A DNA stretch of 64,000 nucleotides from Octopus sinensis (lineage: Eukaryota), in NCBI RefSeq assembly GCF_006345805.1, contig NC_043001.1, positions 31,000,001-31,064,000 on the forward strand. The letters run 5' to 3'. The notes under the pieces are model-generated. The model was not told where the DNA came from and ran no database searches. It saw nothing but the letters and a program-made list of their open reading frames with translations. This document shows, piece after piece, positions 1,274 through 58,375 of this stretch; the stretch's first letter is position 1; every line of letters starts with the position of its first letter. Position numbers and translations under genes: made by a program.

Positions 1274-1824
1274 TAATCAAAATCAAAATCAAAATCATAT
1301 ATACGCACACACATACACACTCACGCATTAAGATAACACATGTATACGAATATGCTGTGTGGGGATGGCATGCCAAAAAAATAGACCCAGCATTTCCCCT
1401 GCGTGTCATATAAGACGTTGAGGTGGATTTGCTCTCCGACCTCGTAAAACCCTCACCAGCAGCGACTATCCAAGCAGCCACAATTAGGTTGGATTGGAGG
1501 ATCGTCGACTCAGTGGTGCAAAGGTGTCATCCGCCAGGGGTAGGGAACACCGATAAATGGTGGCTGCAACAGAGCATGAAACCCCCTCCTCCACGCATAC
1601 ACATACATAATAACAATATTAATATAGACACAAGGCCTGGAATTTAGGGGTGGGGCAGGATATAGTCGATCATATCAACTTCAGTACTTGACAAGCACTT
1701 TATTATATTGACTCTGTAAGGATAAAATGTGAAGTCAGGAATTTGAACTAAGAATATAAAGAATCGGAAAAAATACCACTAGGCATTTTGTTTGACTCGT
1801 TAACGATTCTTTCAGATCACCACC

Positions 1825-1826
<2 letters not shown>

Positions 1827-1885
<59 letters not shown>

Positions 1886-1897
1886 TAATAATAATTA
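1827..1897 (+). repeat. (AAT)n microsatellite directly upstream of the LINE
   Basis: Direct reading. Confidence 0.95.
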
Positions 1898-1899
1898 TA

Positions 1900-4051
1900 A
1901 GGCAATCCTTCGTTTTAACTCGACAAAACTAAAACAAACACTCGGTTGTTTCCATGACAACTCGACAATTCAAACAACCGGGAAGTTACACAAAAAGTAC
2001 GAAAAACTACACGTGCAAAACAATTTAACAATCGAAACGAACGGACCGGTACCCTACGAAAATGATGACCGTCAAAATAAAGGGCTGGACGTTGCTCCTC
2101 ATATCCCGCAAATAAAACCAAAAAGGCATAAACGATCACGCGAGGAATATATTTCAATCCTACACGCTTATTTTACAGCAGTGCTCTACACAAAGAACGA
2201 AAACACAACAACATATACATATAAAATCTGAAAGAAAAATAACCTAAATAAAGACTTGGATACAGCAATGAATTCTAATAAACTAGCGAACATACGAAGA
2301 TATATTCTCTCAGCAAAAAAAAAAAAAAAAAAAAAAAATCAGAAATAGAAATAGAACATTTAAAAGGAAAAATACATCAGGAAAATGTAGATAGTAACCA
2401 CACAGCAATGCCAAATAATATAAACACTGAGATAGTAAAACACGAAGACATTTCCAACAAAAGCGAAGTAAACAACAAAAGACAACAAACTTATACCGTA
2501 GGAATGTATAATAATGTACAAAAAGCACCAATCCAGAATACCACAGACAAACATATGAATGAGAAAGAAGGCGAAGCAAATCTAAAACCTGGAAACAATG
2601 AAGGGGAACCTAATGATTATGATACTATAAAAATGAGCATAATCAAAGAACTGAAAACCACAGATCTCAGAATGGACCACCGATTATACCTCCCCAAAAT
2701 CAAAATAGACAATAAAACATCAATAATAAATAGCATGAACCTGGCCGTCACGGAATTAATAGCCACAGAAACAAATGTCAATACCACTGAGCTAAATGAC
2801 ATAATATATGCAGCAGCCTCTGCAGCCACAAAAGAAGCTGGATACTCCCTCAAACCTGGGCACGACAAGATCCCCAACTTCTGGTTAAAATATCTGACAG
2901 GAACACACAAAAAGCTGGTTGAAAACTTTAATGACATATTTGCAGAGTCAGAGACAATGCCTGAATTGTTCACGAAAAGGAAAACTATCCTAATTCCCAA
3001 ATCCACTGAAACGGCAAAACCACAAAACTGCAGACCAATAACCTGTCTCCCTACAATTTACAAAGCCTTTACTGCAATAATATCGCAGAGACTGAGCAAG
3101 CATCTGGAAGAAAACAACCTGTTTCCATAAGAGCAGAAATGGATGCTGCAAGGGCTCATACAGCTGTAAAGATCAACTAATGATCAATAAAGCCATAACT
3201 GAAAACAGCCACAGAAAAAAGAAAGGCCTTAGTGTGGCCTGGATCGACTAACGAAAGGATCCTCGGAACACTAGCCATGAACAAGGTAGCACGAATAATT
3301 ATAAAATACTTAGGACACTCTATGAATAAACGGCAGACAGTGTTACAGTTCCAAACAAAAGAGGAACTCGTGAAAACCAAAGCCATCCCCATTAGAAGAG
3401 GAATATTCCAGGGAGACACGCTCTCTCCACTCCTTTTCTGCTTGGCACTGACACCTTTATCTGACATGCTAAATAAAACTGGATGCGGATACAAATGTTA
3501 CGGCAAAACAATCAGCCACCTCTTACGTTACAAATGATAAAAGGCTGGAAACACTACTACAGACAGTACATGGATTTACCAATGAAATAGATATGAAATT
3601 TAGCTTAGAAAAATGTGCCAAAGCAACCTTGAAAAGAGGAAGACTAGTTAAGAGTAGCAACATCACACTAGATAAAGCCAATGAAATAAGAGAATTAGAC
3701 CAAAGCCAGACATACAAATATTTAGGAATCAATGAACTAGATACAATACAACACACACAAATGAAAGAAAAAATAAGGAAAGAATACTATACACGAGTTA
3801 GATCAATACTGAAAACAGAGCTCAATGTTAAAAACAAGTTAATAGGTATCAATACTCTAGCTTTCCCAGTTATAAGTTGCAGCTACAATATCTTTAACTG
3901 GACACTAAATGAACTGACCAAAATAGACAGGAAAACAAGAATAATAATGACAAGATCTAGGATGCACCACCCAAAATCTGACATAGAAAGGCTATATATA
4001 CAACATATAGAAGGTGGTAGAGGCCTTATACAGCCGGAAAACTATTATTAA
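1900..4051 (+). mobile_element. Decayed RLE-type non-LTR retrotransposon (Dong/R4-like), reverse transcriptase pseudogene
   Basis: ORFs 2408-3130, 3232-3537 and 3593-4051 give PGHDKIPNFWLK, RPITCLPTIYK, RGIFQGDTLSPLLF, YKYLGI and MHHPKSDIERLY...GGRGL. There are stops and frameshifts, and the YxDD motif is missing near 3525. The clade call is from motif style only. Confidence 0.85.
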
Positions 4052-4060
4052 AAAAAAAAA

Positions 4061-4454
4061 CTTCTTGAGAAACCAAATAGTCTTTCCTTCCTTCATGCCA
4101 AGTTTAAAGAAAATATCTTTTGCATCTTACTTTTTTGGTCTCTTAAATATACTGCATTTTGTGGCATTATTTCAAGCCAGCCGGCTTTTTTTGCGCAAAC
4201 TGCACGTGCATTTTTCTCGCGTACGCGTAGTATCGATCGCAACAGCTGATGTACTTGCGCGTACAAATGCACGTTCTCGCGGTTTTATCGATCGCATTCT
4301 CACTTGGAATCGACTTTTGTAATTTTTTCAAGATTTATACATGCTCTGATACCGTCGGTATCTACTTATCAAATTTGAGCGCAATCGGATGGAGGATGCC
4401 CGAGATACTAGAAGACACACACAGAGACAGACGGAACGGATTTTATATAATAGA
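4061..4454 (-). mobile_element. Helitron-like non-autonomous fragment (5' end)
   Basis: The minus strand begins A|TCTATTATATAAAATCCGTTCCGTCTGTC, the same 5' architecture as the complete Helitron at 50507. No 3' CTRR end seen. Confidence 0.55.
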
Positions 4455-6185
4455 TGTTAAAACCAAATATCTCATGACTCAACACACAATAAAAAAATCT
4501 TAAACTTTTTGCAAAAACATTTATATACATACCATAAGTACTACAAAGCTTTTAACAAAGGCTCTATAAAATCTCTCATTACTACAATTAACCTTCTCCA
4601 ATTATAATCTAATATGAACCGCACCAAACTTAGAGCTTGTCTCTTTAATCCAACGTCCACAAACTTATAACTGTATGTACCTGAATGTATACTTGACCGA
4701 AATATACTTCGTTAGCAATTATTTACTACACTAAGTTAGAAATGAACACACTTTGAATTCATACAAATTATGGTACAATCAATATGCTTACACTTTTCAC
4801 AATCAACTAAGAAGTGCAAACATATTTTGTCCCTATTCCCTTTTTTTCCCCTTTACTTGTTTTGTCATCCAAGCACTCTTCCCCTTCACTGTTATTCTCG
4901 CTCCCTTTGTATAGATGCTATCAGCATATAGAAGAATGTATAGACAGAATGTATGAAAACTTATGGCATGGTAAACCTTTTGGTAAAAATGCTACAAAAA
5001 ATCAACAAGATATATATTAACTGATTACGTACACAGGTAGGGTTTTTGGTACCTTCAAAGATACCGTTAATCCAAGAAACAATGGCAGATGGAACGCCTG
5101 CTTCTTCTTCTTTGTCGTATCTCTGAATGAGTTAATAAAGAAAAAAGAAAGATAATGGTTTATAAAGTGTTTACTGTACAAGTGTTTTATGAATAGGAGA
5201 AAATAAGTTCAAGTTCAGATTAGCCATAATTATCTTCCGCACCATGTACCTTCGATAGGAGAAATTTGTATATCATACATGTTATGCACATGAAGAAATT
5301 GAACAACCTCGAATTTGAGGAAGAATTTACCAATATACTGAGGGGAAATAATCTTAGGGACCTGAAAGAAGCTCTGCAGGCTTGAAACAGAAAATTTTAA
5401 CAAATGTACAGAAATGAAGGACATTGTCGTAAGACAAAAGTTAATGGTTGACAAATAAATTAGCAGATTCTGGACTTGCGATAGGCGCATTCTATTTCAC
5501 TTAGAAAGGTATGGCTTTGATATCCAGGAACAGACTGTTACATGAAAAAGTGAAGAATATCCCTTTTTGAATTACATTAGAACAGAAAATGCTGTTATAA
5601 TTTGGCAGATATCAGCATATACCTTATTCATTAGTGTATAAGGTGCACTATTTTGTATTCGATTTAACTGAGAAAACTGCGATGCAACTTATTAATGGGT
5701 CAGTGCTAAAACATTGAAGGGGAAAAATATTTTGTATTATGATTTAATTCTGAACTTGGGACGTGAGTAAATATGGTGATCATGAAATTTCCATGAGATT
5801 ATACAGCAGTATTCGCGGAGAGGATTTCCTTGATGGAATCTGAGACTTGGATAATCAATGTTTTATGTGGTATTCATTTGAAGATAAGGATAGCTCCATA
5901 TTTTTCAAATAATAATTAAAGCAATGAAATAAAATACATGCTCCTGCAAGAAGCTTATCTCAAGATATCAACAGCTTAACATTTTAAAAACATTTAGTAA
6001 ATGTGTTATATATATTATATATATTACCTGTTCCATTTTGCGTTCAATTTCGGCCCCAAGACCGGCTTTCTTTGCCCTCGACATGGTTCTAGTTAGTCTT
6101 TCTTAACTTAACAACGGGAAAGATTCTGCAAGAAAATATACACACAAAATAGTTATTCAGTCTTGCAAATATTCCTGATACACAA

Positions 6186-6216
<31 letters not shown>

Positions 6217-6407
6217 ACACACACACACACAACACACACACACACACACACACACATGTGCATAGTAAATGAAGATAAATGGACAATGACAGTTGAATAC
6301 GTGCTATTTATGTTTTAAAAGCAATCGGTGCACTATAGAAGCCAAATCATCAGCCATTTCTTCGAGCAAGCTTAACAAGAGTTAGTAATTAGAATATCGC
6401 TCTAGAC

Positions 6408-6757
6408 CAGGTATTCTCAACCATTTTTTTTTACCTATGGACTCCTTTGATTGCTATTTTATTCTGGTGGACCCTCGTAGTCATTCGATGTTTAAAAACT
6501 AGTTTCATAGATACTTCTTTCAAAATTCCCATCTTGTTTTTCATACATAAACTTGCGTAGGTTGAACTATGTAAAATGTTAGAGAAAGAAATCTAGCTTT
6601 CTTGCAATATATACCAATACATACATCTGAATCAAACTTTCTTCAGGGGTCCTTACAATACTATTGTGGATCCCCAATTTACTGTGTTGCTGTGTGGAAC
6701 CCCAAAAATCTTATCTGGATCCTCAAGGGCCATATGGACCCCGGTTGAGAACCATTG
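6408..6757. mobile_element. hAT(Charlie)-like MITE
   Basis: Imperfect TIRs CAGGTATTCTCAACC / GGTTGAGAACCATTG with repeated subterminal GGACCC-like motifs; no clear TSD. Confidence 0.65.
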
Positions 6758-6879
6758 TGTATTAATATGATTTGCTTGTTCATACTTTAATAGCGATGAT
6801 AATTATAGACTTTACAATGCTATATTTGTACGGTATAAACTCTACAGATACCAGTGAAATCGTCAGTTTGCGTGTGTGT

Positions 6880-7170
6880 ATCTTACATATTAAAACTGAA
6901 AATGTCTGTGTGTGTGTGTGAGGGGGGTATGTCCTCGTTTGGCGCCAAAACGGCTCGACCAATTTTTCTTAAACTTCACACGTACATTACTTATGTGTCT
7001 GGGAAGGTTTTAAGTACAAATTGATTTTGAAAAAATGTTCGGGTAAACGGCGCGAGGAATAAAATTTGGGCGTGAGTGAACGGTGGGAGTAAAATTTTTA
7101 AGCTTCCAAGGGAAATAACCCATTCCCTTCTGGATATAACCACCAAGGGAAATAACCCATTCATTTTCAG
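6880..7170 (+). mobile_element. Helitron-like 5' fragment
   Basis: ATCTTACATATTAAAACTGAAAATGTCTGTGTG start resembles the Helitron 5' ends at 4454 and 50507. Contains an internal duplicated CCAAGGGAAATAACCCATTC; 3' end not identified. Confidence 0.45.
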
Positions 7171-7357
7171 TATGCTTATTTCTTAGTATTTGGACTATTT
7201 TAGTTATTTTCTCAATTCATCCAATACAACGCTTAAACAAGTAAATAGTATTCTCACAAACAATAGATCCACTTATTTTGGTTAGTGACTTATTTACGAA
7301 TATACCAACACTAGCGCTGCTGAGGGTAATATTCTCTGGGAATGCACAAAAGCTGTA

Positions 7358-7500
7358 TGGCAAGGAGCTTGCTTCCCAGTCACAAGGTTCCGAATTCAAT
7401 TCCATTGTGTAGCACCTTGGGCAAGTGTTTTCTATTATAGATCGGGCCAACTGAAGCCATGTGAGTAGATTTGGTAGACGGTAGCTGAAAGAAGCCCATC

Positions 7501-7556
<56 letters not shown>

Positions 7557-7798
7557 TTATTCTTCACCATTGCTTGACAACCAGTGCTGGCGTGTTTACG
7601 TCCCTGTAACTTTGCGGTTTGGTAGAAGAGACCGATACAATAAGCACCAGGCTTAACAAAATAAAATTTAAAAAAAAAGAATAGAAAGAAGGGAAACAGA
7701 AAAATACTGGGGTTGATTGATTCGATTAAAAATTGCTCAAGGCGGTGCCCCAACATGTCCGCTGTCTAATGACTGAAGCAAGTAAAAGATAAAAGAGA
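7358..7798 (+). mobile_element. SINE family B (tRNA-like head, internal microsatellite, conserved tail), diverged copy
   Basis: Head ...GGATTTGGTAGACGG..., internal (TA)n(TG)n, tail GCTTGACAACC...GACTGAAGCAAGTAAAAGA. Confidence 0.75.
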
Positions 7799-7831
7799 AG
7801 AAAAAAGGTATAGGTACACACACACACGCAC

Positions 7832-7889
<58 letters not shown>

Positions 7890-8059
7890 ACACACACAAA
7901 TGCATAGGGTTGCGTATGCCTGCGTGCATGCGTGCATGTGTATGTTACACCTTCTCGTCAAAGTACATTCACGAGAGATGCGATAAAGCAGTGCTTTGGT
8001 ATATACATCTGTAGGGCATGTTCTAAAGAGTTGCGCTGATGCTCCTTTATCTTACTCGT

Positions 8060-8126
8060 AATTCTGAGTGGATTCTGTCGAAGAGTAACTGAACGAAGCT
8101 CGGCGAATATATATATATTTGTGTGT

Positions 8127-8209
<83 letters not shown>

Positions 8210-8540
8210 TGCGTGCGCGTGTGTGTGTGTGTGTGTGTGCAAGAATCATATTACGATGTAATCTAAATGGCAGAAATCTATCAGAAGAAAAGAAAATCTC
8301 CAGTTCTCCATTTTTTAAAGAAAATTCTCTTACAGATCTGGCATTTGTGTTTGTCTCCCGCCACCGCTTGACAACCGGCGTTGGTGAGTTTACGTCCCTA
8401 TAACTTAACGATTCGGTAAAAGAAACCGATAGCATAAGTGGCAGGCTTTTAAAAATAATACTGGAGTCTATTCGTTCGACCATAATTCTTCAAGGCATGG
8501 CCGCCGTCAAATGACTGAAACAAATAAAGATAAAAAGATA
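8060..8540 (+). mobile_element. SINE family B, diverged and interrupted copy with expanded (TG)n
   Basis: GAGTGGATT...GAAGCTCG head remnant, then (TG)n, then tail CGCTTGACAACCGG...ATGACTGAAACAAATAAAGA. Confidence 0.65.
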
Positions 8541-10869
8541 TGTATTTATAAACCTTATAAATACATATCTTTTTAGCTGTTGTTTCTAGAAACTTAAGTG
8601 ACCGTGTAAAAATTCGTCAGGTCTTTAGTGAATATCATAGGGTACAGAAAGCTTCAAATGTTCAGCTCTTTTAATAAAATACTTCGTGGTAACTTTATTC
8701 TTGACAGTTTCTCGCATACTTACCAGATGTCAGCCTATAATGCGAGGTGATGAGAATTTCGAAAAGTACTTCAGAATGTATTAGCAAAAGCAAGTCTGTT
8801 AGCATGCCTAGCTGTACATTTTGGCATATCAGTGAGATGTTAGGTATGCGGAACCAAAAATGGAGAATGAAGATCGGTGATTTGAAATGCAGCTTTAGAA
8901 ACGGTTGTATGTTTGCTTCTCTTCGAAAGTATTTCGCTATGGGTGATACTCATTCGTGTTATATTATTTTGTTCGGTGCATTAAATGTTATCACTAACTT
9001 ATTTGAGGTCTGTAACTTTGAGCTTGACATCAAAGTGACATAAAGACGTCTGTGTGCTACATTAAAGATCTTAATTACTTCATATTATTTGATGGCTGCC
9101 AATACATCAATCCAAATTAACAATCATTAGAACAACGAATGCCGTATAAGATTCGTTCTGGTTCGGCTTGCTCTGAGTTCAAGCATCCTCGAGTTCAACT
9201 CTTCCTTTCATCCTTTCGGGTGGTTGATAGAATAAAGCAATAATCTAATATTAGAGTCGAGTCTTCTATCTGGAAGAAACCTGTAGCCAGACCTAGAGAA
9301 GAATGGATCCCACTAGATTCAGAATCCCAAAGTTTACATAAAGATTAATTCAATACGTAATGATTAATTTGCGTCTGGTTTGACCTTCAAATAAGAGGGT
9401 CTGGATGACCGAGAGCCTTTTCGAAGAGTGATTTACAACCATCTTTTTGTCCTACAGTAGAAAGGTACATATTATTTTCAACAAAGCGTTGCTCATTTTA
9501 GACAATGTACCTTTCTTAATAGACCTTTCTTATGATGTGAGAGCATAATATATTTCCAAGAATATAGTTTCTTTGCTCCAGCCAATTGATGAACGTGTAA
9601 TAGCTTATCGTACGTTGAGAAGAACTTTCAAACAAGTTTTGAAAGCAACTGGTAAAGAAGATAAACCAGCAGCTAACAACTTCCGGAAGAAGTCGTGGCC
9701 GTGTTAGTGAATGCATTGCTAGTGCCTCATAGAGAAAGTTTATTAAATGAGGAGCTGACCCTGTTACAGCAAAAACAAGCAGAGAATACTGAGGAAAATA
9801 CGAAAAAACTCTACGAATTTCATTTAAACTGATTGAAAAGAATACTACTAAAGAGTTAGCACTTAGAGATGAAGGTCGTAAACGTAACATAAATATTAAA
9901 AGTGATTACAATGCGCTCAACTCCTACACTGAGTTGTACAGAGATGATGGGCCACAAGCATTAAACACTTTTGGATGAGTTCTTCAGCCTTCAAGTAGAG
10001 GATTATGATAGAAATGTCCTTCATCCTGCCAGTAACTCTCATTCAACCACCACTCCTCAAACAGTTCTCAATATATTTTGCGGTAAGTACATACCCAACT
10101 ACGATATTATTAAATTACGTATTTCACTTTAAGTATCTTACATAACTCCGATATTTTTGCATTCATTTATTGATTAGTATTACACTCTGTACTTATCTTA
10201 CGGTTCATATAAAAACCCAGAGTTGAGGACATCAGTGAATTCTCACCACCTCGTCGCCGGAGCTAAGTTAATTCCGTGCAATATAAGTTAGAGTTGGAAA
10301 AATTGGGTTTTGGTTTTGTCATGACAAGGCGGAATTACGATAAACACACAAACGTACGTCCGCGCACACACGCACACACACACACACACGTGTGTGTGTA
10401 TGCATCTATGTATATGTGATGGTGTATATATGTGCGCGTGTGTATCGTTGGCGATTTTCTTTCTCCGTCTTTCCTTCCTTGGACGTGAAATAAAGTGTCT
10501 TGCTCAAGAACACAACACACTGCCCGGTCCAGGAATCAAACTTACTACCTCATGATTATGAGCCTGACGAGCCATGCTCTTCACACACAATCATCTGCAT
10601 ACTAACATATACATTTCCCTGTGTGTATGCGCCTGTGTGTATATGCATACATCAAAAGGGAGTAGTGTACAGGAAAAGGGAAAATAGAATAAAACAAATT
10701 AACAAAACAAAAAAAAACAAAAAATCAAAGTAAAAGCAAACAAACATATAAAAAAAAACAGTTTTAGGAAGGAAAAAAAAGATATATAATATTTTATCGT
10801 TGAAACTATTTTCAACGCCGAGGAAGGATAGGAGATTTGATTGAGGTAAAAGGCCAACAGTTGAGAATT

Positions 10870-11472: not shown

Positions 11473-12262
11473 CTCTAGGCACAAGGCCTGAAACTTTTGG
11501 GGAGGGGGGCGGTCGATTAGATCGACCCCTGTACGCAGCTGGTATTAATTTATCGACCCCGAAAGGATGAAAGGCAAAGTCGACCTCGGCGGAATTTGAA
11601 CCCAGAACGTAAAGACAGACGAAATACCTATTTCTTTATTACCCACAAGGGGCTAAACACAGAGGGAACAAACAAGGACAGACATAGGTATTAAGTCGAT
11701 TACATCGACCCCAGTTCGTAACTGGTACTTAATTTATCGACCCCGAAAGGATGAAAGGCAAAGTCGACCTCGGCGGAATTTGAACCCAGAACGTAAAGAC
11801 AGACGAAATACCGCTAAGCATTTCGCTCGGGGTTCTAACGTTTCTTATTTCTTTATTGCCCACAATGGGCTAAACATAGAGGGGACAAACAAGGCCAGAC
11901 AAACATATTAAGTCGATTATATCAACCCCAGTGCGTAACTGGTACTTAATTTATCGACCCCGAAAGGATGAAAGGCAAAGTCGACCTCGGTGGAATTTGA
12001 ACCCAGAACGTTATGACAGACGAAATACCTATTTCTTTACAACCCACAAGGGGCTAAACACAGAGGGGACAAACAAGCACAGACAAACGGATTAAGTCTA
12101 TTACATCGACACCCAGTACTTAACTGGTACTTATTTAATCGACCCCGAAACGATGAAAGGTAGAGTCGATCTCGGCGGAATTTGAACTCAGCTCGTAAGG
12201 GCAGACGAAATAACGCTAAGCATTTCGCCCGGCGTGCTAACGTTTCTGCTAGCTCGCCGCCT
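11473..12262 (-). mobile_element. SINE family A head-to-tail concatemer (about 4 central blocks)
   Basis: ATCGACCCCGAAAGGATGAAAGGCAAAGTCGACCTCGGCGGAATTTGAAC recurs at about 11552, 11736, 11953 and 12138. Confidence 0.85.
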
Positions 12263-17052: not shown

Positions 17053-18954
17053 CTTCCTACTTCTACTACAAAGCAGATGAACCATGGTGTAAACTTTCAG
17101 ACCCTAGTCTAGACTGCGAATCCTTTCTACCCCAGGATGGTTCAGCTCTCCACCCGTTAAAAGCCACCGTTTACGGAATGAGGATAACAACGTAGCTTTC
17201 GCGCCCGTGCAGCCACCAGTCTGTCGCGTGTGGTTGGTGGATCTTCAAATTGCCACACGCATTCTTAGTAGCTTAGAGTAGGCTCGAATTAGAGATTATT
17301 CTTTGTGGCTAATGGCGTGAGTCCTGATTGGAAGAAGAAGAAGGTAAACTAAATATTTAATCCATCACTAAAAATAACAAATACTATGTAATATGTTAAT
17401 GACACAAAATACCCTTGTCGTATTAAATAAAAGAGTACGCGTGGCGGTTTTGGAACGACGAAGATAATGAATCATGTGTTTTCCCCCCCGTTTATTCATT
17501 TCAAAGAAAACCATAAATAGGCCAAATCAATAGGTTGTGAAACTACCAAGTCTGTGTCCTTTCAATCAGCATTTATCAGTGATCATGCCTAGCTTGGACC
17601 GAATCAACTTCAGTGTGTTATTAATATTCAGTCACAGTAGCAAAATCATCCTAATAATCACACCCAGCCATATAAAATGAAGAAAATACTCGTTAGATTA
17701 TGAGGTCTAATATTCCTCTAAAATGGTAGAATAATCACGGTTGGAATGCCTTGGATCGTAGGTCTATCGTAGCAGGGCTGATCTGGGTCTTAAAAAATGC
17801 CACTTCCAAAACAACAACGGTAACAACTGATCAGATTTAGAAAGACGTAAGTGAAGGCCAACTCTGTGGAAAACTGTGTTTAGAACTAAAAAGTATGAAA
17901 CCGGTTACTGAGGAAAATTACCCCGGAATATCTCCCAGAGAGAAAACAAACAGTTAAGTTAGTGTTAGCATATTGATATAGGAAGTAAAACTACTATGTT
18001 TAATCCAGATTGCCATCGCAGAGAAGAGAGTACAACGTTAGCCCAGTGTTTAAATCTTATCGAGGCAAGTAAGGGCGACAACGCAGAATATATCAATCAA
18101 TTAATTATAATTATAATTATGCATGCGCCGAGGAGAAGAGAAACCGTCTGCCTGCACAAAGAGCTAATATTAATTTAATCTGATCTTGCACTAAATTTAT
18201 TCTGATGTATGAATCCCAGTGGCTTAGTTTAGTGGCTGAAACAACTAATGATACATAAAAACACACACAGAAAAAAAAAACTTTTCGGTATTCTCTTGTT
18301 TTATAGAATGAGTTTTATCAATCCAATTTCTCGCAAATAACATTTATAAATAATTAAACCATTAAAAGGTTAGCGTAGCAGAAGAGGGAGTTTCTTTTTT
18401 GTACCTTCTGCGTTTGAATCAATATTCGAAGACATCTTGGTCGAGATCATCTTGCAACTATTTACCGAAGTGGATTCAATCAACTATATCGATCGTTTAG
18501 AAATCTGCGACCTTGAGACGATATACGAACCCGATTAGTCAAATCATTTATTAATTTGCGATTTAGCTACGATTAATCAAAGATTACGAGTGTACGTTTA
18601 ATCTAACCTTTAATCTAAACGTAGGGAGCAAGTAAGGAAGATAAGCGGGGGAAATTAAAAATGAAAGATAGGCTGGACACTCTGTCTTTGTGTTTGCTGT
18701 CTGACTGTCTTCTCACTATCTCTCTCTCTCTCTCATGTATATATATAAAATTAATAAATATATATATACATATATACAGTCACAGGCAGACAGGCAAACA
18801 GGCAGGCAGGCTGGACACTGTCTTTGTGTCTGCTGTCTGACTGTCTTCTCACTCTCTCTCTCATGTATATGTATAAAATTTATAATTATATATATACATA
18901 TATACAGTCACAGACAGACAGGCAAACAGGCAGACAGACAGACAGACAGACACA

Positions 18955-19021
<67 letters not shown>

Positions 19022-19264
19022 TTCTAATACTTTTCTCTCCCTTTAATGAGGAGTATCCCCATAAACGTTAGATTCTCTTCCTTTTTCTTCTATCAGCGTA
19101 TTTATCTCAGGCACATGTTTTTGCTTTTGTATTTGCTTCTCTCCTTTTTGCTTCATAACCTTACTGCTTTTGTGTGACTTTAAAAATCTGTTTATATCCC
19201 TATGTCCATACAGAACCAATCTGCATGCATGTATGTATGTATGTATGTATGTATGTATGTATAA

Positions 19265-19318
<54 letters not shown>

Positions 19319-19339
19319 ACTTAACGATCCTCTCACACC

Positions 19340-19387
19340 GTCTCCGATGAAGGGATATAATAAATATCATGGAAACAGCTGTAAGAC
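19340..19387 (+). ncRNA. Minimal type I hammerhead-like motif (Penelope-type), CCGAUGA core variant
   Basis: GTCT-CCGATGA-AGGGATAT(AATAA)ATATCATG-GAAACAGCTGT-A-AGAC: stem I GTCT/AGAC, palindromic stem III ACAGCTGT, GUA site; base of stem II damaged. Confidence 0.6.
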
Positions 19388-19668
19388 CTTCTATCTATAA
19401 ATGTTCTAAAATCTACTCAGTCTTGTTTTTTTTTATCTCATTACGAAAACTTTTTTATGTACACACGCTGACATATGACTAAAGTTGAACCCCTTATTCG
19501 CAAAATCACCGAACTTGGAACTTAATTATGGTCTATCTATGGCACTTATTCAGCATTACCTGACACCTTTGGGTCTTAATAATGACACAATCACCTCTCA
19601 TAACCTCTCTCTCTCTCTCTTTATATATATATATATATGAATATATATACATATATGAATATATATAC

Positions 19669-19721
<53 letters not shown>

Positions 19722-19837
19722 CATATGTCTATATATGTATATATATGTATACATATATGTATATGTATGTATATATATATATATACACACGCGCGCGCGC
19801 ACAACACACACACACACACACACAAACACATATATAG

Positions 19838-19970
19838 GGGGAATTTACGAAAAAAACAAAAGACGAGGACAGATGGTGTAGAAAACAAACATATGTATTA
19901 GTATAACGCTCAGGAATTGAAAAAGTCTTTCACGTTTCGAGCCTACGCTCTTCCACAGAAAGGAAAAAAT
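19838..19970 (-). mobile_element. Penelope-like pLTR fragment with degenerate hammerhead (19927-19962)
   Basis: Minus strand CTTT-CTGTGGA-A-GAGC(GTAG)GCTC-GAAACGT-G-AAAG. Related sequence occurs inverted at 37699-37790 and diverged at 48205-48295. Confidence 0.55.
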
Positions 19971-20011
19971 GTGTGTAGTGGCTACCAATCTCTCTCTCTC
20001 TCTCTCTCTCT

Positions 20012-20050
<39 letters not shown>

Positions 20051-20064
20051 TATATATATATATA

Positions 20065-20135
<71 letters not shown>

Positions 20136-20464
20136 TATAAGAGAGTGGTCACTATATGGCTCACTCTAGCACCAGTTAATCCAAAAGGTTTCAACCACTA
20201 AAAATAATGTTTCCCATGAAAGTCAGTACGATTGTTAGCTCACTTGGTGTTGAATGGATATACTATTAAATTAGTATCTAATTCTCTCACCCTTATTAAT
20301 TATTATAATTATGCTGCATTTATTTCTAAATGCTGTATTTGTTTTCCGTGAGAGTTTGGCGCGCTGTTAGTTGGGGCATTTGAATTATAACGTCGGATGT
20401 AATCAATTGAACACGCGTATTATCGTTATGGTAAAATCTGGCGTGTGATTGAGTGGATTTCATC

Positions 20465-20560
20465 CAGATAGTTTTGGCCGATGAGCTACAAGTGGATTTT
20501 TTTGTAAGTAAAATTACATTTAATTCATTAATAGCGAAACAATTGTCCCAAAATAATCTG
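20465..20560 (+). ncRNA. Type I hammerhead ribozyme, copy 1 (predicted cleavage after C20547)
   Basis: Stem I CAGATAGTTTTGG/CCAAAATAATCTG; core CCGATGA 20478-20484; stem II GCTA/TAGC extended by GTGGATT/AATTCAT and TGTAA/TTACA; GAAA 20536-20539; palindromic stem III ACAATTGT; GUC site. Confidence 0.8.
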
Positions 20561-20993
20561 TATTTTTGTTTTTTTTTATTGCCCTGTCCGTGTGAGCTAA
20601 CAATCGTACTGACTTTCATGGGAAACATGTATTTTTAGTGGTTGAAACCTTTTGGATAACTGGTGCTAGAGTGAGCCATATAGTGACCACTCTCTTTATT
20701 ATTTTGTAAAAATATTATAATATATTATAAAATATTATAATAATCCAGGTTCTCGGAGCACTAGGCCACTTGGTGTTGAATGGATATACTATTAAATTAG
20801 TATCTAATTCTCTCACCCTATTAATTAATTATAATTATGCTGCATTTATTTCTAAATGCTGTATTTGTTTCCGTGAGAGTTTGGCGCGCTGTTAGTTGGG
20901 GCATTTGAATTATAACGTCGGATGTAATCAATTGAACCACACGCGTATTTATCGTTATGGTAAAATCTGGCGTGTGATTGAGTGGATTTCATC

Positions 20994-21089
20994 CAGATAG
21001 TTTTGGCCGATGAGCTACAAGTGGATTTTTTTGTAAGTAAAATTACATTTAATTCATTAATAGCGAAACAATTGTCCCAAAATAATCTG
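20994..21089 (+). ncRNA. Type I hammerhead ribozyme, copy 2 (predicted cleavage after C21076)
   Basis: Same sequence as copy 1; core 21007-21013, GAAA 21065-21068. Confidence 0.8.
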
Positions 21090-21369
21090 TATTTTTGTTA
21101 TTTTTTTATTTGCCCTGTCCGTGTGAGCTAACAATCGTACTGACTTTCATGGGAAACATGTATTTAGTGGTTGAAACCTTTTGGATTAACTGGTGCTAGA
21201 GTGAGCCATATAGTGACCACTCTCTTATATTTATTTTGTAAAAATATTATAATATATTATAAAATATTATAATAATCCAGGTTTCTCGGAGCACTAGGCC
21301 ACTTGGTGTTGAATGGGATACTATTAAATTAGTATCTAATTCTCTCACCCTTATTAATTAATTATATAT

Positions 21370-21412
<43 letters not shown>

Positions 21413-21516
21413 TGATAGTAATAATATAAACACTAAAAAATGTAATTGGCATTTTGAGCTCGACAGAACACACACGTGTTTCAGTGAATTGATTTGCAGT
21501 TATTTGCAAGGCATTT

Positions 21517-21745
21517 AAGGCTGTGAGCTGGCAGAACCGTTAGCACTCCGGACGAAATGCTGAGCGGCATTTCATCCATCTCCACGTTCTGAGTTCAAAT
21601 TTCGCCGAGGTCGACTTTCCCTTTCATCCTATCGGGGTCGATTAAATAAGTACCAGTTACGTATTACGTACAAGAGTCGATGTAATCGACTTTCCCCCTC
21701 CTCCAAATTCCAGGCCTTGTGCTTATATCAGAAAGGATTATTATA
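21517..21745 (+). mobile_element. SINE family A, diverged
   Basis: GAGCTGGCAGAACCGTTAGC...GAGTTCAAAT...GAGGTCGACTTTCCCTTTCATCC. Confidence 0.8.
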
Positions 21746-21876
21746 CAAGGCAACTGGCAGGGCTAGCATAGCTGCAGCTCTCAAGCTGAAACTAATAAAA
21801 GAAAAGAAATGCATCTATGTATATATGCATGTATGCATATATGTATATGTGTGCGTGTGCGTGTGTGCATGCGTGC

Positions 21877-21923
<47 letters not shown>

Positions 21924-22241
21924 TGTGTGTGTGTGTAGACGCTTATGTTTGCAAAGAAAAGCACTGAATATATTTTGGGTTTGCAGGGATGATGTCATTA
22001 CAATTTGAGATCTAGTTTCTACAATAATAATGTACGTTATGAAGTCACTTAAATATCACCACGATACATTATAGGCCAAAAGAAAGGTAATTCTTTGATA
22101 CGTAGACAGTGCAGAGGTGGTTGCCCTCGAAAGGTTCTTTATCTCTGAAAGCTTCAGAAAAAAAAGCATCACCAGCATAGTTCCAGGTTTTATTGAGATG
22201 CTGGTGTACAATTGTATACAATACGAGCTGTCATAGATGGA

Positions 22242-22490
22242 CAGATTGAATGAAAATTCATAGGAATATTTGCAGAGTTTAAAGTAATTAGCACAAGCTT
22301 AGCGATAGACAACTTCTTAGGCATGACATTAGATTTAAAAACAAACAAACACTCCCCATGCAGAAGCCCAAGTTCAACGTTCACAGACATTCCGACTATG
22401 ACTAGCCCCCAAAATAGTAATCTTCTATTCGGAGTAAGTTGAAGAGTCTTTGATATATCCTGTGGAAGAAATATCTTTAACATATTCTGT
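22242..22490 (+). pseudogene. Penelope-like element reverse transcriptase relic
   Basis: Frame from 22242 reads KFIGIFAEFKVISTSLAIDNFLGMTLDLKTNKHSPCRSPSS...GVS*RVFDISCGRNIFN. This resembles the PLE RT C-terminal pattern NFLDxTLxL...PYxKP...RxSxxSxxxxIF; in-frame stops present. Confidence 0.55.
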
Positions 22491-23435
22491 TGTGTCTGGG
22501 GAGAGTCATTTTCTTTTTGTGTCTTATAATGTAACACACTCACCGGTCAAATTTTCACTTTTTTGTTATTTTTATTTTCCTAAAATTTTCGTTGCGTCTC
22601 GTCTCTTATTAAAATGATGCGCTTTACGCAAACATATTCGTGGTCTTTCGTCATTCCAGCGACATCAGCTTAATATTTTCACTTGTTCTAGATTGCGTCA
22701 TTTGGTCTCTATTGTTATTTATTTGTGTGTGTGTGAATAAAATATATTATATGTGAATTTTCTTTTATGCATCATGTTTTCCATTAAAAAATATACATAA
22801 ACTATGCTAAAATATTTCATCTTTTTTATTTCAAATTTTTCATGTTTTTTCAATAGATTTTTATAGATGATTTGGAACAATAAATAGAGTTTATTCCTAA
22901 ATCCATATCCGACAGCTCCGGACATTCACTCTTATTTTCGAGAATTCAGTATATTTGCCCTCTGCTTGAATTCATGTATATTAGGAAATAATTCAAGTGT
23001 GCCTTTGGCATAAATTTAAATATGTTAAAAAATAATTTACAAAAGCATCGTCAGTTAATTCAAATTTTCGTCTTAGTTGGAGAAAGAAAATGAAAATCTA
23101 TTTGTAATTCTTGGAAACATAAGAAAAAAGGGGTAATTTCCAGAAATTAAGAATTAACCACTCAAACAATTTACATGTTCAAGAGAAAGTCTGATCTTTA
23201 TTTCCAAAGCGAAGGACAACCCTGGACATGTTTCGGCGTTATGAGACCTCACCAATATAAGTGTATTCTACTCAAACCAGCTTTGATCGGGTGAGCATAC
23301 AGAACAGTCCCGAATAATTATTGATCAGTAAAAGTTATATGATTAAAAAATATAATGTATGTGTGTATAATATATTTTAACTGAAGATTTGGCCAAATTT
23401 TAATTTAAAACTATATACATAGTAAAGTTTCATGT

Positions 23436-23658
23436 CTTTTATCTTTTACTGGTTTCAGTCCTTAGACTGTCCCCATGCTGGAGCATCGCCTTGAAGGGTT
23501 TTTAGTCGAACGAATTGACACCCAGTCCTTTTTTTTAAAGCAAGCCTGGTACTTATTCTATCAGATTCTTCTGCGGAACCGCTAAGTTGCGGGGACATAC
23601 ACAAGCCAATACTGGTTTTTAAGCGATGGTGAGGAACAAATACATATACAATGACACA

Positions 23659-23729
<71 letters not shown>

Positions 23730-23897
23730 ACAACACACACACACGATAGGCTTCTTTCAGTTTCCGTCTACCATATCCACTCACAAGGCTTTGGTCTGCC
23801 CGAAGCTAGAGTAGAAGACTGTTGCCCAAGACGCACGCAGTGGGACTGAACTCGGAACCATGTGATTTGGAAGTAAACTTCTTACTACACAGCCACA
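23436..23897 (-). mobile_element. SINE family B with internal (CA)n
   Basis: Reverse-complement match to head and tail of the copy at 55836. Confidence 0.85.
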
Positions 23898-26800
23898 CTG
23901 AAAGACTAATTAATGTTCATTATCGCTTTATTTCTGTGTTTTGATTTTATATCTTTTCCTATTTTTAAACTAAATTAGAAAGAAAAATAAATAAAATAAA
24001 ATAGATTATTCATATAAAATACGACATTGTTAGATAAGTCTTTATAAAAGAACATTATCCTCTATTTTCTGTTTATAAAACTATAAGCAAATGGAATGAA
24101 AACGTTAATGTCAAGATTTAAAAATAACACAACAGCCCTTGTGTTCTTTGTTTCCCTGCATATCATCACTATTTTTAAACATCACTGCATACAAGCAAGT
24201 CAAAAAGCATCTGCGTGGCCGTTAGATTTACTAGAGATAGCAACAAAGTCTCTCTCAAACAACACCCAACGTTTTTAGAAGAGATAAAAAGAAAAGATGC
24301 ATTGGATAATGATTATCTCGTTGCAGTGTTTGAATAAACGACCAGACGGTCCACGTTACTATAAAATCTACTAGAACATCGCGACTAGAGCTGAAAAGAA
24401 AGACAACTAGTTTCTCTCCTCTATTTTACACCTTTGCGCTATTCATTGTTGATAGAAGATCAATTGGGAATTTGATTAAATATAATTGATATTGTTACCA
24501 TAACTCGGGGAGGATCAACCAAGAGTTAAGTTTCTGGGGTGTCTCTTTGTATGTTTTTTCAAAAGAGGAAAGACAGTCTCATGACATTTTTGCATAGTCT
24601 CCGAGACTGGTAGGAGAAAAAGAGGAAGAAATTTCAGCTCTGGCAAGAAGTCTAGCCTGAATACTTGCAAAGTAACGAACTCTGCCAAAATGGTACGCGA
24701 AGGCCAGACGGTGATGGTAAACCTGACAAAGGCTAATACTACTGGTAGTATCCTTTTCCAGTTGCCTATAGAAAGATTTGAGTACTTCTGTAGGCTCCAT
24801 TTAACATAGTTTTACTCGTGTTATATTATGGAGTGAGAAAATTATTGATTCGGAACATATTTCGATATAATGACTGACTTCCTAAACAAAGCATAACCTT
24901 CACTAAACTTGCCAAAGTTGTGACGAAAGGATTGATGTCTTTGCAATAGAAATATACCACCACTGGCGACGATAAAATAACTACATCAGCAAGTTTGTAT
25001 CTTGAAGCAAGGTAATATACGGTCGAGATGAAACTAAATCCCCTATTTCGAACTTAATGTGGTAAAACTAAGGAAATTGCAATTCACTTTGACAAGAATG
25101 TCGAGGATACCTTTACCAGCAACCGGCAACATCCTTTTCAGTTCGATACACTGAAACAGGAAGTAATTACGTTTTATTGGGGATACGAGCCCGTCACTCT
25201 TCGATTAGCAAACCAACTTAGCCACCAACAACTGCTTTTGAAAGAAAGTTTTTGATAATACTGAAATCTATTCTAAACTATTGAAATATCTTACGCCGAA
25301 CCTTTGTTTCGCAATCAAGGTGACCTTGTCACATTGATATTTTAACTTCTTCATTAGAGCAGTTGCAGAGCGTCTAACGAATACGACCCATTACATTCTA
25401 AGTTCGATTTTAACTTTGCATTTCATCTATTCATAGTCGATAAGATAGCAGTCAACTGCTGGGATCTGTTTAAACGATTGTATCCTCCCACCAAATTTAT
25501 GGTCCTGTACCTATGTTAAAAATCAACATTAGCAACACTTGTCGCCTTAACATCTTCCATATAATCTACTAGAGACTCTTAATTAGTATTAACACTCTTT
25601 ACACTAATACTAGTAAAGTTTCATGGAACGGTGAAATCAGGAGTTCGAATCGACTTCGTCTTCGTCGAAAAGATTAAAGGAAAAGCTTAATATGAAATCC
25701 TTGTATAGAGGATGGTGACAACAAAAGGACTTTTGGACCAATGGTACATATCCTTTTCATGGAAACCCGGAAGAGCAGCCTCTTCAATTTGGTTCAACAA
25801 CTCTCCAAATAAAACATTGTCGTTAGACGGGACTAAACCACTAAACTACTATCTACGGATAGTTTCTCTCGTCTAATGTTTTAGCGAGTCCCACTATTCT
25901 TTTCGTAACGACTTTATGATATTTCGACATAACAGATAAATGATTTCAAACTTAGACACAAAGCAATACATTTCGAGAGCGAATACAGTGATTTATGCCA
26001 ACCCTGTACTTGACTAAGTTTTGATATCATATATACCTATTTCATGGTCTAAGGAAGAATAGAATGCAAACTGTTATTCTGTCGAGAACAACAATTGTAA
26101 AAATAATCTTTTTACAGACAAAAAGCTCATAACTCCACCATATTTTATCTAGCAGAGCAGAATTAGAAAAGTTGTTAGAGAAGTAAATTAAGAAAACAAA
26201 ACTAATCGCTGTGAAACGTCCTGTATAAGGAAAATATGTTTCAGTTTCACTTCTATCGTACAACGAAATACAAAGCTATTCTTTTTTTCAAATTTTATTT
26301 TCGAAGCTTCAGTTATTACGGAAGCAGGAAAAGGTTTCAATTCCCTGAGCATATGTAGCTGATAAGAGTGTTAATAACAATATCATCATCCACAATACTC
26401 ACATATAGCGTAAGCATGCATACACATATATCTACATATCTACACTTTCATATACACAACTGCGTGTACATTGTGTATAAATCACTTAAGTTTATTATAA
26501 TTATCGCAAACCAGACTTGCACTTGCATAGAATTCACATGTATATGTGGATCCTTCGTCGGTTTCGATGATGAGCATTCAATGTTTGACCAACTAAACTA
26601 CATACTCGTTAAACCAATGTCGAAGCGGTTGAGTATTCCATGAACACGGATACTCTTAAGGTAATTTTCAGGCTGAATCTGCACATGACAACAAGGCTGG
26701 ATCTACGAATTACCATTATAATCTTTCCTACAGGCATCTACGCTATTACGCGAACCCAGTTTCACTCACAAGGTTTTTTTTTTTTTTATCACAGGTTATA

Positions 26801-57403: not shown

Positions 57404-57434
<31 letters not shown>

Positions 57435-58018
57435 TTCTTTATTGCCCACAAGGGGCTAAACATAGAAGGGACAAACAAGGACTGACAAACGGATGAAGTC
57501 GATTACATCGACCCCAGTGCGTAACTGGTACTTTATTTCTCGACCCCGAAAGGATGAAAGGCAAAGTCGACCTCGGCGGAATTTGAACTCAGAATGTAAT
57601 GGCAGACGAAATACCTATTTCTTTACTACCCATAAGGGGCTACACACAGAGGGGACAAACAAGGACAGACAAACGGATTAAGTCGATTATATCGACCCCA
57701 GTGCCTAACTGGTACTTATTTAATCGACCCCGATAGGATGAAAGGCAAGGTCGACCTCGGCGGAATTTGAACTCAGAACGTAGCGACAGACGAAATACCG
57801 CTAAGAATTACGCCCGGCGCGCTAACGTTTCTGCCAGCTCACCATATTTATATACGACGAGCTTCTTTCAGTTTCCGTCTACCAAATCCACTCACAAGGC
57901 TTTGGACGGTCCGAATCTATAGCAGAAGACACTTGGCCAAAGTGCAACGCAGTGGGACTGAACTCGGAACCATGTGGTTGGTAAGCAAGCTATTTACCAC
58001 ACAGCCACTCCTGCGCCT
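57236..58018 (-). mobile_element. SINE family B with a SINE family A dimer (57433-57843) nested in its internal microsatellite
   Basis: B tail 57236-57375, (TACA)n, A dimer, B head 57856-58018. Confidence 0.85.
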
Positions 58019-58375
58019 CCCAAAACTTTTATTCAAAAGTCTTTGGTCGTGGATACGGTAGACAGGTAGAAATCCCTTGCCCAAGGTACCACGCCCGGCG
58101 CGCTAACGTTTCTGCCAGCTCACCATATTTATATACGACGAGCTTCTTTCAGTTTCCGTCTACCAAATCCACTCACAAGGCTTTGGACGGTCCGAGTCTA
58201 TAGCAGAAGACACTTGGCCAAAGTGCAACGCAGTGGGACTGAACTCGGAACCATGTGGTTGGTAAGCAAGCTATTTACCACACAGCCACTCCTGCGCCTC
58301 CCAAAACTTTTATTCAAAAGTCTTTGGTCGTGGATACGGTAGACAGGTAGAAATCCCTTGCCCAAGGTACCACGC
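57810..58375. repeat. 281-bp tandem duplication
   Basis: 57810-58090 is near-identical to 58091-58371, with ACGC microhomology at the junctions. Confidence 0.9.

Follow-up and report, generated by a model that had tools for sequence, protein, structure and literature searches.

A single insertion in the window (the whole 64,000-nt stretch of Octopus sinensis DNA analyzed here) consists of an inverted arm and about 2.1 direct hammerhead-bearing units set between (TA)n tracts, and it belongs to a real new family whose class, the animal retrozyme, is of an already known kind. We consider it likely that the family is a non-autonomous retrozyme mobilized by a Penelope-type enzyme, with both target strands primed on the same RNA and with reverse transcription probably rolling around a circle. 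Taken separately, the parts of this reading differ in strength: that the family is a non-autonomous Penelope-type element is close to certain, that both arms come from twin priming on one RNA is highly probable, and that a circle is the usual template is probable.

Structure of the insertion

The features of the locus, in window coordinates, are as follows.

20018..20130, no strand: left (TA)n tract, putative insertion target (the TRF call spans 20018-20139)
20131..20243, minus strand: inverted 5'-truncated arm, from unit phase 358 to fixed end B (...CCACTCTCTTATATTATTT, then TA tract)
20241..20765, plus strand: unit 1 of the direct arm, beginning at phase 2 (copy comparison)
20465..20560, plus strand: type I hammerhead 1, cut predicted after 20547 (motif, folding, covariation)
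20548..21076, plus strand: predicted self-cleaved monomer, 529 nt (prediction)
20766..21297, plus strand: unit 2 of the direct arm (copy comparison)
20994..21089, plus strand: type I hammerhead 2, identical to hammerhead 1, U4C at 21008, cut predicted after 21076
21198..21237, plus strand: hairpin (21198-21224) and end-B motif within unit 2
21298..21366, plus strand: end piece (68 nt) to fixed end A (...CTCTCACCCTTATTAATTAATTA, then TA tract)
21367..21410, no strand: right (TA)n tract (the TRF call spans 21363-21410)

The direct array (20241-21366) is made up of units of 526 and 532 nt (cut at 20240/20766) and the 68-nt end piece, and its copies are 97% identical, with 1 mismatch and 17 gap positions over 605 nt. 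An earlier reading of the locus, made from the letters alone (hereafter the sequence-only reading), had described 2.1 head-to-tail copies between two (TA)n tracts; the direct array bears this out, whereas the part at 20131-20243 proved to be an inverted arm, a reverse-complement match to 20592-20705 and 21123-21237 that overlaps the direct arm by 3 nt (20241-20243). End B (21237) sits 129 nt before end A (21366), the end-A piece contains a hairpin at about 21305-21349 that is conserved together with the end in sister families, and the locus obeys the end rule of the family given below, with B at its left and A at its right. The same reading had seen no plausible coding ORF, and we agree: frames opened by ATG reach 46 aa at most, and frames defined only by the lack of a stop reach 81 aa. 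The hallmark of an autonomous element, an ORF with reverse transcriptase and GIY-YIG between pseudo-LTRs, is absent from the window array, from 38 top-hit loci and 32 position-ordered stretches of the family, and from 30 stretches of sister and variant copies.

Elsewhere in the window, we observed a common short interspersed repeat shortly beyond the right end of the locus (21517-21600, with at least 9 further places), broken plus-strand frames at 1752-4051 that by eye resemble the reverse transcriptase of non-LTR retrotransposons, and two-copy tandems at 57427-58375 and 11629-12029 (184, 281 and 217 bp) that resemble pieces of common short interspersed repeats. The window-wide hammerhead scan listed nothing at either of these tandems.

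The hammerhead ribozyme

Hammerhead 1 has stem I at 20471-20477/20548-20554, stem II at 20485-20488/20532-20535 with a long extension, the core CCGATGA at 20478-20484 (U4C at 20479), GAAA at 20536-20539 and the palindrome ACAATTGT at 20539-20546; GAAACAATTGTC begins at 20536 and again at 21065. Both hammerheads had been folded by eye at these positions and both folds stand, but with the core CCGATGA instead of CTGANGA, and the canonical core CTGA.GA has zero matches on either strand of 20100-21420. The search with hammerhead models that had been proposed as a check did not recover them: over 18000-24000, Rfam gave 45 matches at E<=5, all below the gathering score and none of them a hammerhead. 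The hammerhead identity rests on motif, folding and covariation.

Conservation and covariation of the stems in other copies, the lack of which was to count against the sequence-only reading, were found for stems I and II across the sister families. In 19 hand-chosen sequences from the family and its sister families, 99.2% of 247 cells were paired versus 24-40% in slid controls, with two-sided changes in 5 of the 13 hammerhead pairs (four in stem I and one in stem II); shuffle-based statistics come out too high because the sequences are related, and the covariation result therefore leans on the slid control and the pair table. Within the young family itself, core conservation taken alone is weak evidence, with 58 of 455 columns changed overall and 1 of 20 in the core, where about 2.5 would be expected.

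Folding of 20455-21100 supported the suggestion that two copies act as a dimer through the palindromic stem III, as the double hammerhead was the predicted unconstrained minimum-energy structure, the palindromes forming 8 bp together and the two copies exchanging stem I. Its predicted energy (-173.3 kcal/mol) is 8.7 kcal/mol lower than that of two monomeric folds (-164.6 kcal/mol), and the modeled ensemble probability of the dimer stem III is only about 0.33. When the 529-nt monomer was folded as a circle (-139.6 kcal/mol, z -5.1 versus 40 shuffles), stems I and II were predicted to be kept and stem III to be open, so that such a circle would resist cutting.

Genome-wide, 1,453 units carry the canonical core and 109, those of the window locus included, carry U4C; A6 is changed in 1 unit and A9 in 4, and a non-core T is likewise changed in 1. 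Across 154 full copies, a sample enriched for the window's lineage, common core changes fell at two positions, namely position 4 (T 97, C 52) and position 7, where all four bases occur (C 75, T 57, G 21, A 1). Position 7 of the hammerhead core is known to be free. Among 20 loci chosen for carrying U4C, two or more haplotype lineages with this change have spread, the CCGATGA form is present at 24 or more loci among the first 100 places listed, and the window copy is part of a minority U4C lineage, which has spread in its own right. U4C is reported to reduce activity considerably in vitro while still permitting viroid infectivity (PMC3088659), and the window copy may therefore cleave poorly; we give its efficient cleavage an even chance, and regard an active ribozyme in the family as very likely.

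Further hammerhead-like sequences were noticed in the same genome. Unrelated-looking hammerhead families with a long stem II and a palindromic stem III are common (loci L167-L196 and others), and other palindromes were seen. A separate dispersed repeat on the minus strand of the window at 19922-19966 (within about 19830-19990) carries a minimal-hammerhead-like motif with the core CTGTNGA (U replacing A6), stem II GAGC/GCTC, GAAA and a G at the cut position; its pattern had 18 matches among the sequences examined, some of which overlap one another.

A dispersed family of tandem units

A search of the octopus's own genome with the unit returned at least 217 matches (40 of 881 candidate regions scored), the full-length ones being 91-100% identical, and an exact 22-mer from the ribozyme 3' half occurred 1,647 times genome-wide compared with 0 for the control. 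We inspected 38 top-hit loci and the window, 32 position-ordered stretches on contig C1, and 20 loci chosen for U4C. Nearly all copies examined occupy (TA)n or similar AT-rich tracts, and they consist of one or two arms ranging in size from a fragment to about 17 units. Units elsewhere mostly measure about 533-535 nt, so the spacing of 529 nt first noted between the GUC sites is correct for this locus but untypical of the family, and it probably reflects indel error in this copy.

That caveat about indels does not extend to the tandem itself. The sequence-only reading had worried that the repeat might be an assembly artefact, which the small indels that make up most of the differences between the window units would suit, as would the fact that no contig of the four public runs examined spans the locus; but arrays with locus-specific haplotypes stand on many contigs, and the window locus conforms to the family rule at either end. 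Because the family recurs as arrays genome-wide, we take the window tandem to be real, and the chance that it is an artefact to be negligible.

A relaxed hammerhead pattern found 118 related hammerheads versus 2 control matches, and sister families with 68-76% identity over a unit of about 500 nt are likewise non-coding, tandem and inverted. The family thus displays tandem non-coding units, a type I hammerhead in each and dispersal without a protein of its own, which are features of retrozymes, and this survey, like the insertion architecture, agrees with the retrozyme-like, Penelope-linked class proposed at the outset. Local duplication together with flanks was seen at L046, L145, L150 and L048/L049. 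Parts of the unit are also carried by contigs of 4 public runs (of 22 listed) with three organism codes; these contigs fit two places, and their depths and the base at position 4 were left out of the evidence. A self-closing 565-nt contig (534 + 31) in run X11, the RNA origin of which is a guess only, was considered as evidence for a circle and rejected, since a tandem DNA array gives the same. Splice-like motifs were noted by eye in the unit, and the contigs of the four public runs contain no such joints.

Another concern, likewise raised beforehand, was that the unit might always be the pseudo-LTR of an ORF-bearing Penelope-like element, of which the known copies would be truncated. The insertion architecture, which is fully Penelope-like, and the fact that the loci inspected are a minority of the family would both be compatible with this; however, an ORF was attached in none of the examined loci, as no Penelope-type ORF lies 5' of the unit in the 38 top-hit loci, the window or the 32 position-ordered stretches, nor 5' of sister or variant copies in 30 stretches. 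Upstream of any unit in these loci there was more unit, an inverted arm or flank, and the sister families stayed non-coding and tandem at their 68-76% identity, which makes the pseudo-LTR explanation very improbable. In L039 (3908-5569), L048 and L049, the unit is nested in the (TA)n end of an ORF-bearing Penelope-like family, as is to be expected from the target that the two share.

In the literature and preprints, with subscription journals, Repbase/Dfam and some supplements outside the scope, we found no description of this family or of a cephalopod retrozyme, nor, within the same limits, of a two-arm, one-template pattern in a retrozyme; unseen supplements could list the family. For the giant squid, the genome paper goes no further than noting 235 hammerhead matches to Rfam.

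Fixed ends, paired arms and shared variants

The 5' end varies from arm to arm, and each arm stops at its 3' side in one of two fixed ends, A (...CTCTCACCCTTATTAATTAATTA) or B (...CCACTCTCTTATATTTATTTT), which lie 129 nt apart and are each preceded by a hairpin kept in sister families. In 69 loci we counted 114 arms, 61 ending in zone A and 53 in zone B (binned by alignment ends, the B arms of L065 and L143 being irregular). Copies elsewhere in the genome had been expected to be tandem and differently permuted; many tandems exist, but their 3' ends are fixed, with 114 of 114 arms falling in the two zones. The permutation of the window's 2.1-mer, which had been taken as the mark of a circle, loses that meaning for the same reason, its ends being the two fixed sites, and the case for a circle comes instead from haplotype patterns across loci. 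In inverted loci the arms meet head to head, with A opposite B at 49 of 49 junctions (45 after subtraction of 4 local duplicates) and at 16 of 16 more, whereas A/A or B/B junctions number zero of 65. As the first 38 loci were the top full-unit matches, their rates of arrays and inversions are overestimates; of 31 loci in the position-ordered sample, 18 were inverted and 13 had an arm exceeding 850 nt. Target-site duplications are unreadable inside (TA)n. The record thus combines a fixed 3' end, 5' truncation, a tail at one end, an inverted 5' copy and an AT-rich target, all of them Penelope-like features.

The two arms of a locus share their variants. Arm-to-arm mismatch was 5/702 within loci versus 9,504/34,031 (28%) between loci, and fifteen locus-private variants fill all the units covering them, 9 of these across both arms; 73G is present in 10/10 units of L035 and 377A in 7/7 of L141, in each case over both arms, and 148C in 17/17 units of L033. 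This haplotype sharing could partly reflect one haplotype dominating the RNA pool at a time. Both arms are longer than one unit in 21 of the 45 two-arm loci. The 5' ends scatter over the whole unit, and 2 of the 114 come within 5 nt of the cut site, where chance would place about 2.3; this lack of a pile-up indicates that the enzyme read through the cut site, and run-off from a cleaved linear monomer was ruled out by the same lack of excess.

Variants fixed throughout an array are A>G or T>C in 16 of 30 cases versus 19 of 162 among single-unit variants, a difference in share which suggests that they arose by a different process. A-to-I editing was considered as their source and is not established (A>G in 10 of 125 A columns versus T>C in 6 of 175 T columns, p = 0.12). 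Both arms of the L035 array (3498-9298) are marked throughout by four rare A>G changes, at phases 21, 34, 73 and 115, which may be RNA edits that reverse transcription fixed in DNA.

Periodic variants are present as well, with period 2 (alternating unit types) in L055 and L247 and period 3 in L068; judged from the sequences, they would fit rolled dimers or trimers. The period-2 and period-3 arrays lie at L247 2089-5061, L055 3424-5748, L068 3115-7835 and L223, and in that of L247 a U4C core alternates with an A9U core, the latter also with a stem I mismatch. Several shared variants (L033, L065, L066) are non-periodic, and few bear on the register of the two priming sites on multimeric templates. 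The terminal A piece of L035 lacks 21G and 34G, which are present in all other units of that array, and it is therefore unexplained by a single monomer circle.

Arrays of this kind might instead have grown in DNA by slippage, unequal crossing-over or gene conversion after single pseudo-LTR-like copies had inserted, as has been suggested for vertebrate retrozymes (10.64898/2026.07.22.740005, Discussion). While the period-2 and period-3 variants could be DNA duplications, and the loci named above were indeed duplicated locally with their flanks, growth in DNA fits poorly with opposite arms that both exceed a unit in 21/45 loci, with private variants common to both arms across the inversion, with variable 5' and fixed 3' ends, which mark reverse transcription, and with the contrasting A>G or T>C shares of array-fixed and single-unit variants. 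We regard it as improbable to a high degree.

An alternative that retains the same twin priming replaces the circle with a linear template, either an uncleaved read-through array transcript or a linear monomer re-read by template jumping, and has the hammerhead kept for some other step. Copying of a linear template can neither make an array longer nor establish a new variant in all of as many as 17 units, and the alternative sits uneasily with a core in which A6 is changed in 1 and A9 in 4 units versus 1,453 canonical ones and which is kept across families at 68-76% identity. What speaks for it is that the anole protein inserts without a need for hammerhead cleavage in vitro (PMC11167929), that U4C lineages spread, that the alternating U4C and A9U units of L247 still form an array, and that the end piece of L035 departs from the other units of that array; the absence of a 5'-end pile-up at the cut site fits a linear template too. 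Template jumping on a linear monomer would also fix new variants array-wide. New variants in all units of long arrays call for a one-unit bottleneck and for re-reading, both of which a circle gives directly, and we therefore prefer the circle and consider a linear template unlikely.

A candidate source of the enzyme

An abundant and young ORF-bearing Penelope-like family is present in the same genome (18,530 candidates, 150 scored). L163 (4498-7338) contains an open 947-aa Penelope-like frame with an Asn-rich insert, the domain order of which, together with a Cys cluster before the C-terminal GIY-YIG, was read by eye and matched to the published description of Neptune; by this by-eye comparison of sequence the family appears to be Neptune-type. 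Pfam (L039 copy) and NCBIfam searches of the Penelope-like ORF gave no match. The family carries a hammerhead of its own, likewise with a palindromic stem III, and terminates in (TA)n. Among 26 hand-picked stretches, 13 of 13 inverted pairs combined a short with a long end, the two lying about 118 nt apart, which is the two-end rule of the retrozyme unit over again. Further copies were seen at L039 439-2358 and L227-L246.

The unit has no significant DNA similarity to this ORF-bearing family. No autonomous partner was found among the family loci (38 and the window), the 32 position-ordered stretches and the 30 sister or variant stretches, and none with similarity to the unit among 20 loci of other hammerhead families. 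The Penelope-like ORF of L039 was considered as a partner and rejected, as it belongs to the other family, which has its own hammerhead, and the unit array sits in its (TA)n end. Collectively, the data support the Penelope mechanism class.

Proposed mechanism and its significance

In the mechanism that we favor, two units of a tandem transcript would pair their ACAATTGT palindromes into an 8-bp stem III, with cutting predicted after GUC, and a host ligase would, by analogy with other retrozymes, close the cleaved RNA into a circle of about 534 nt. An endonuclease, to judge from the insertion record, would nick both strands of the (TA)n target, whereupon the 3' end of one strand would prime at A and that of the other strand at B; each of these sites directly follows a hairpin and a C/U-rich motif. 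The two cDNAs would run on through the cut site, often beyond one unit length, and stop at variable points, and their 5'-to-5' joining would leave head-to-head arms. The enzyme would probably be supplied by a Neptune-type element.

Published experiments bear on several of these steps. A purified Penelope-like protein, for which a dimer is modeled, is reported to cut and extend both strands and to begin synthesis at two internal positions of the RNA, which define the tail (PMC11167929); in the same in vitro work on the anole element, start sites were alike between strands and hammerhead mutants were without effect on insertion. Animal retrozymes are reported to yield circles (PMC7229834), and 8 of 9 predicted Xenopus retrozyme dimers did not cleave (10.64898/2026.07.22.740005).

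A more specific version, which we put forward tentatively and with less than even confidence, is that the insertions preserve the whole retrozyme cycle: a dimer of the Penelope-type enzyme would bind a single RNA circle at two sites marked by hairpins, one per target strand, and roll both cDNAs around a monomer, dimer or trimer. Tail, tandem and inverted arms would then be products of one asymmetric reaction, a weakened U4C ribozyme would be tolerated or favored, and RNA-level changes, possibly A-to-I edits, would be written into the genome. If true, that one reaction would explain the tail, tandem and inverted arms of Penelope-like elements at large.

How retrozymes re-enter the genome and how the tandem and inverted insertions of Penelope-like elements originate are called open questions in published work. 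The present family is young, abundant and polymorphic, and yields direct genomic rules: strict A/B pairing, one template per two arms, and a one-unit bottleneck before amplification. It also allows a hammerhead core variant, U4C, to be seen spreading in an animal genome. The added value lies in an insertion record that is unusually clear on mechanism and makes an open mechanism testable, and a short non-coding RNA with two start sites, together with the 947-aa Penelope-like ORF, renders an in vitro test of circle versus linear template straightforward.

Comparison with known systems

In LINE-1 twin priming, two target-strand primers on one RNA give rise to a 5'-inverted insertion, the second site being opportunistic and the arms non-overlapping on the template. 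In the octopus family, by contrast, both sites are fixed and either arm can cover the whole unit several times.

The closest relatives in kind, the metazoan non-LTR retrozymes (PMC7229834; 10.64898/2026.07.22.740005), are described as having non-coding tandem units with one type I hammerhead each, a weak palindromic stem III expected to act as a dimer, and Penelope-like elements in the same genome, as here, and a link of retrozymes to Penelope-like elements has been argued (10.64898/2026.07.22.740005). The unit of about 534 nt compares with invertebrate retrozyme circles of about 170-400 nt (PMC7229834) and with retrozyme consensus lengths of up to 972 bp in the preprint. Unlike in metazoan retrozymes, stem II here has a long extension, the ribozyme is invisible to Rfam, and stem III is predicted to stay open in the circle. 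The present family further shows fixed dual ends, head-to-head arms and (TA)n targeting, none of which is reported for metazoan retrozymes in the available text of these two sources, and the main text of the preprint mentions no octopus, cephalopod or mollusc. Circles have been demonstrated for metazoan retrozymes (PMC7229834), whereas the octopus family is known from genome sequence and prediction.

Elements of Chlamys such as MRC1 (PMC8557442) are likewise non-autonomous, Penelope-type and inserted as multicopy head-to-tail arrays. They are reported to resemble autonomous partners at the 3' end, whereas here no partner matched, and the MRC1 clade is described as being without canonical hammerheads, whereas a hammerhead is present here. 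With the Penelope-type minimal hammerheads (PMC4209133) the octopus ribozyme shares the type I topology, the G10.1-C11.1 pair, a palindromic stem III that forms no stable hairpin, and predicted dimeric activity.

Endonuclease-bearing Penelope-like elements (Neptune, Penelope/Poseidon; PMC8557442, PMC3846280) show the same 5' truncation, tandem and inverted copies and one-end tail, and are further alike in AT-rich or microsatellite targets, a repeat-borne hammerhead and two internal start sites (PMC8557442, PMC3846280, PMC11167929). The octopus family differs from them in that its unit has no ORF, its arms are often both multimeric, and its tail measures 129 nt versus the reported 30-40. Finally, the anole protein is reported to use its start sites without strand preference (PMC11167929), whereas in the octopus family one end of the insertion is always A and the other always B.
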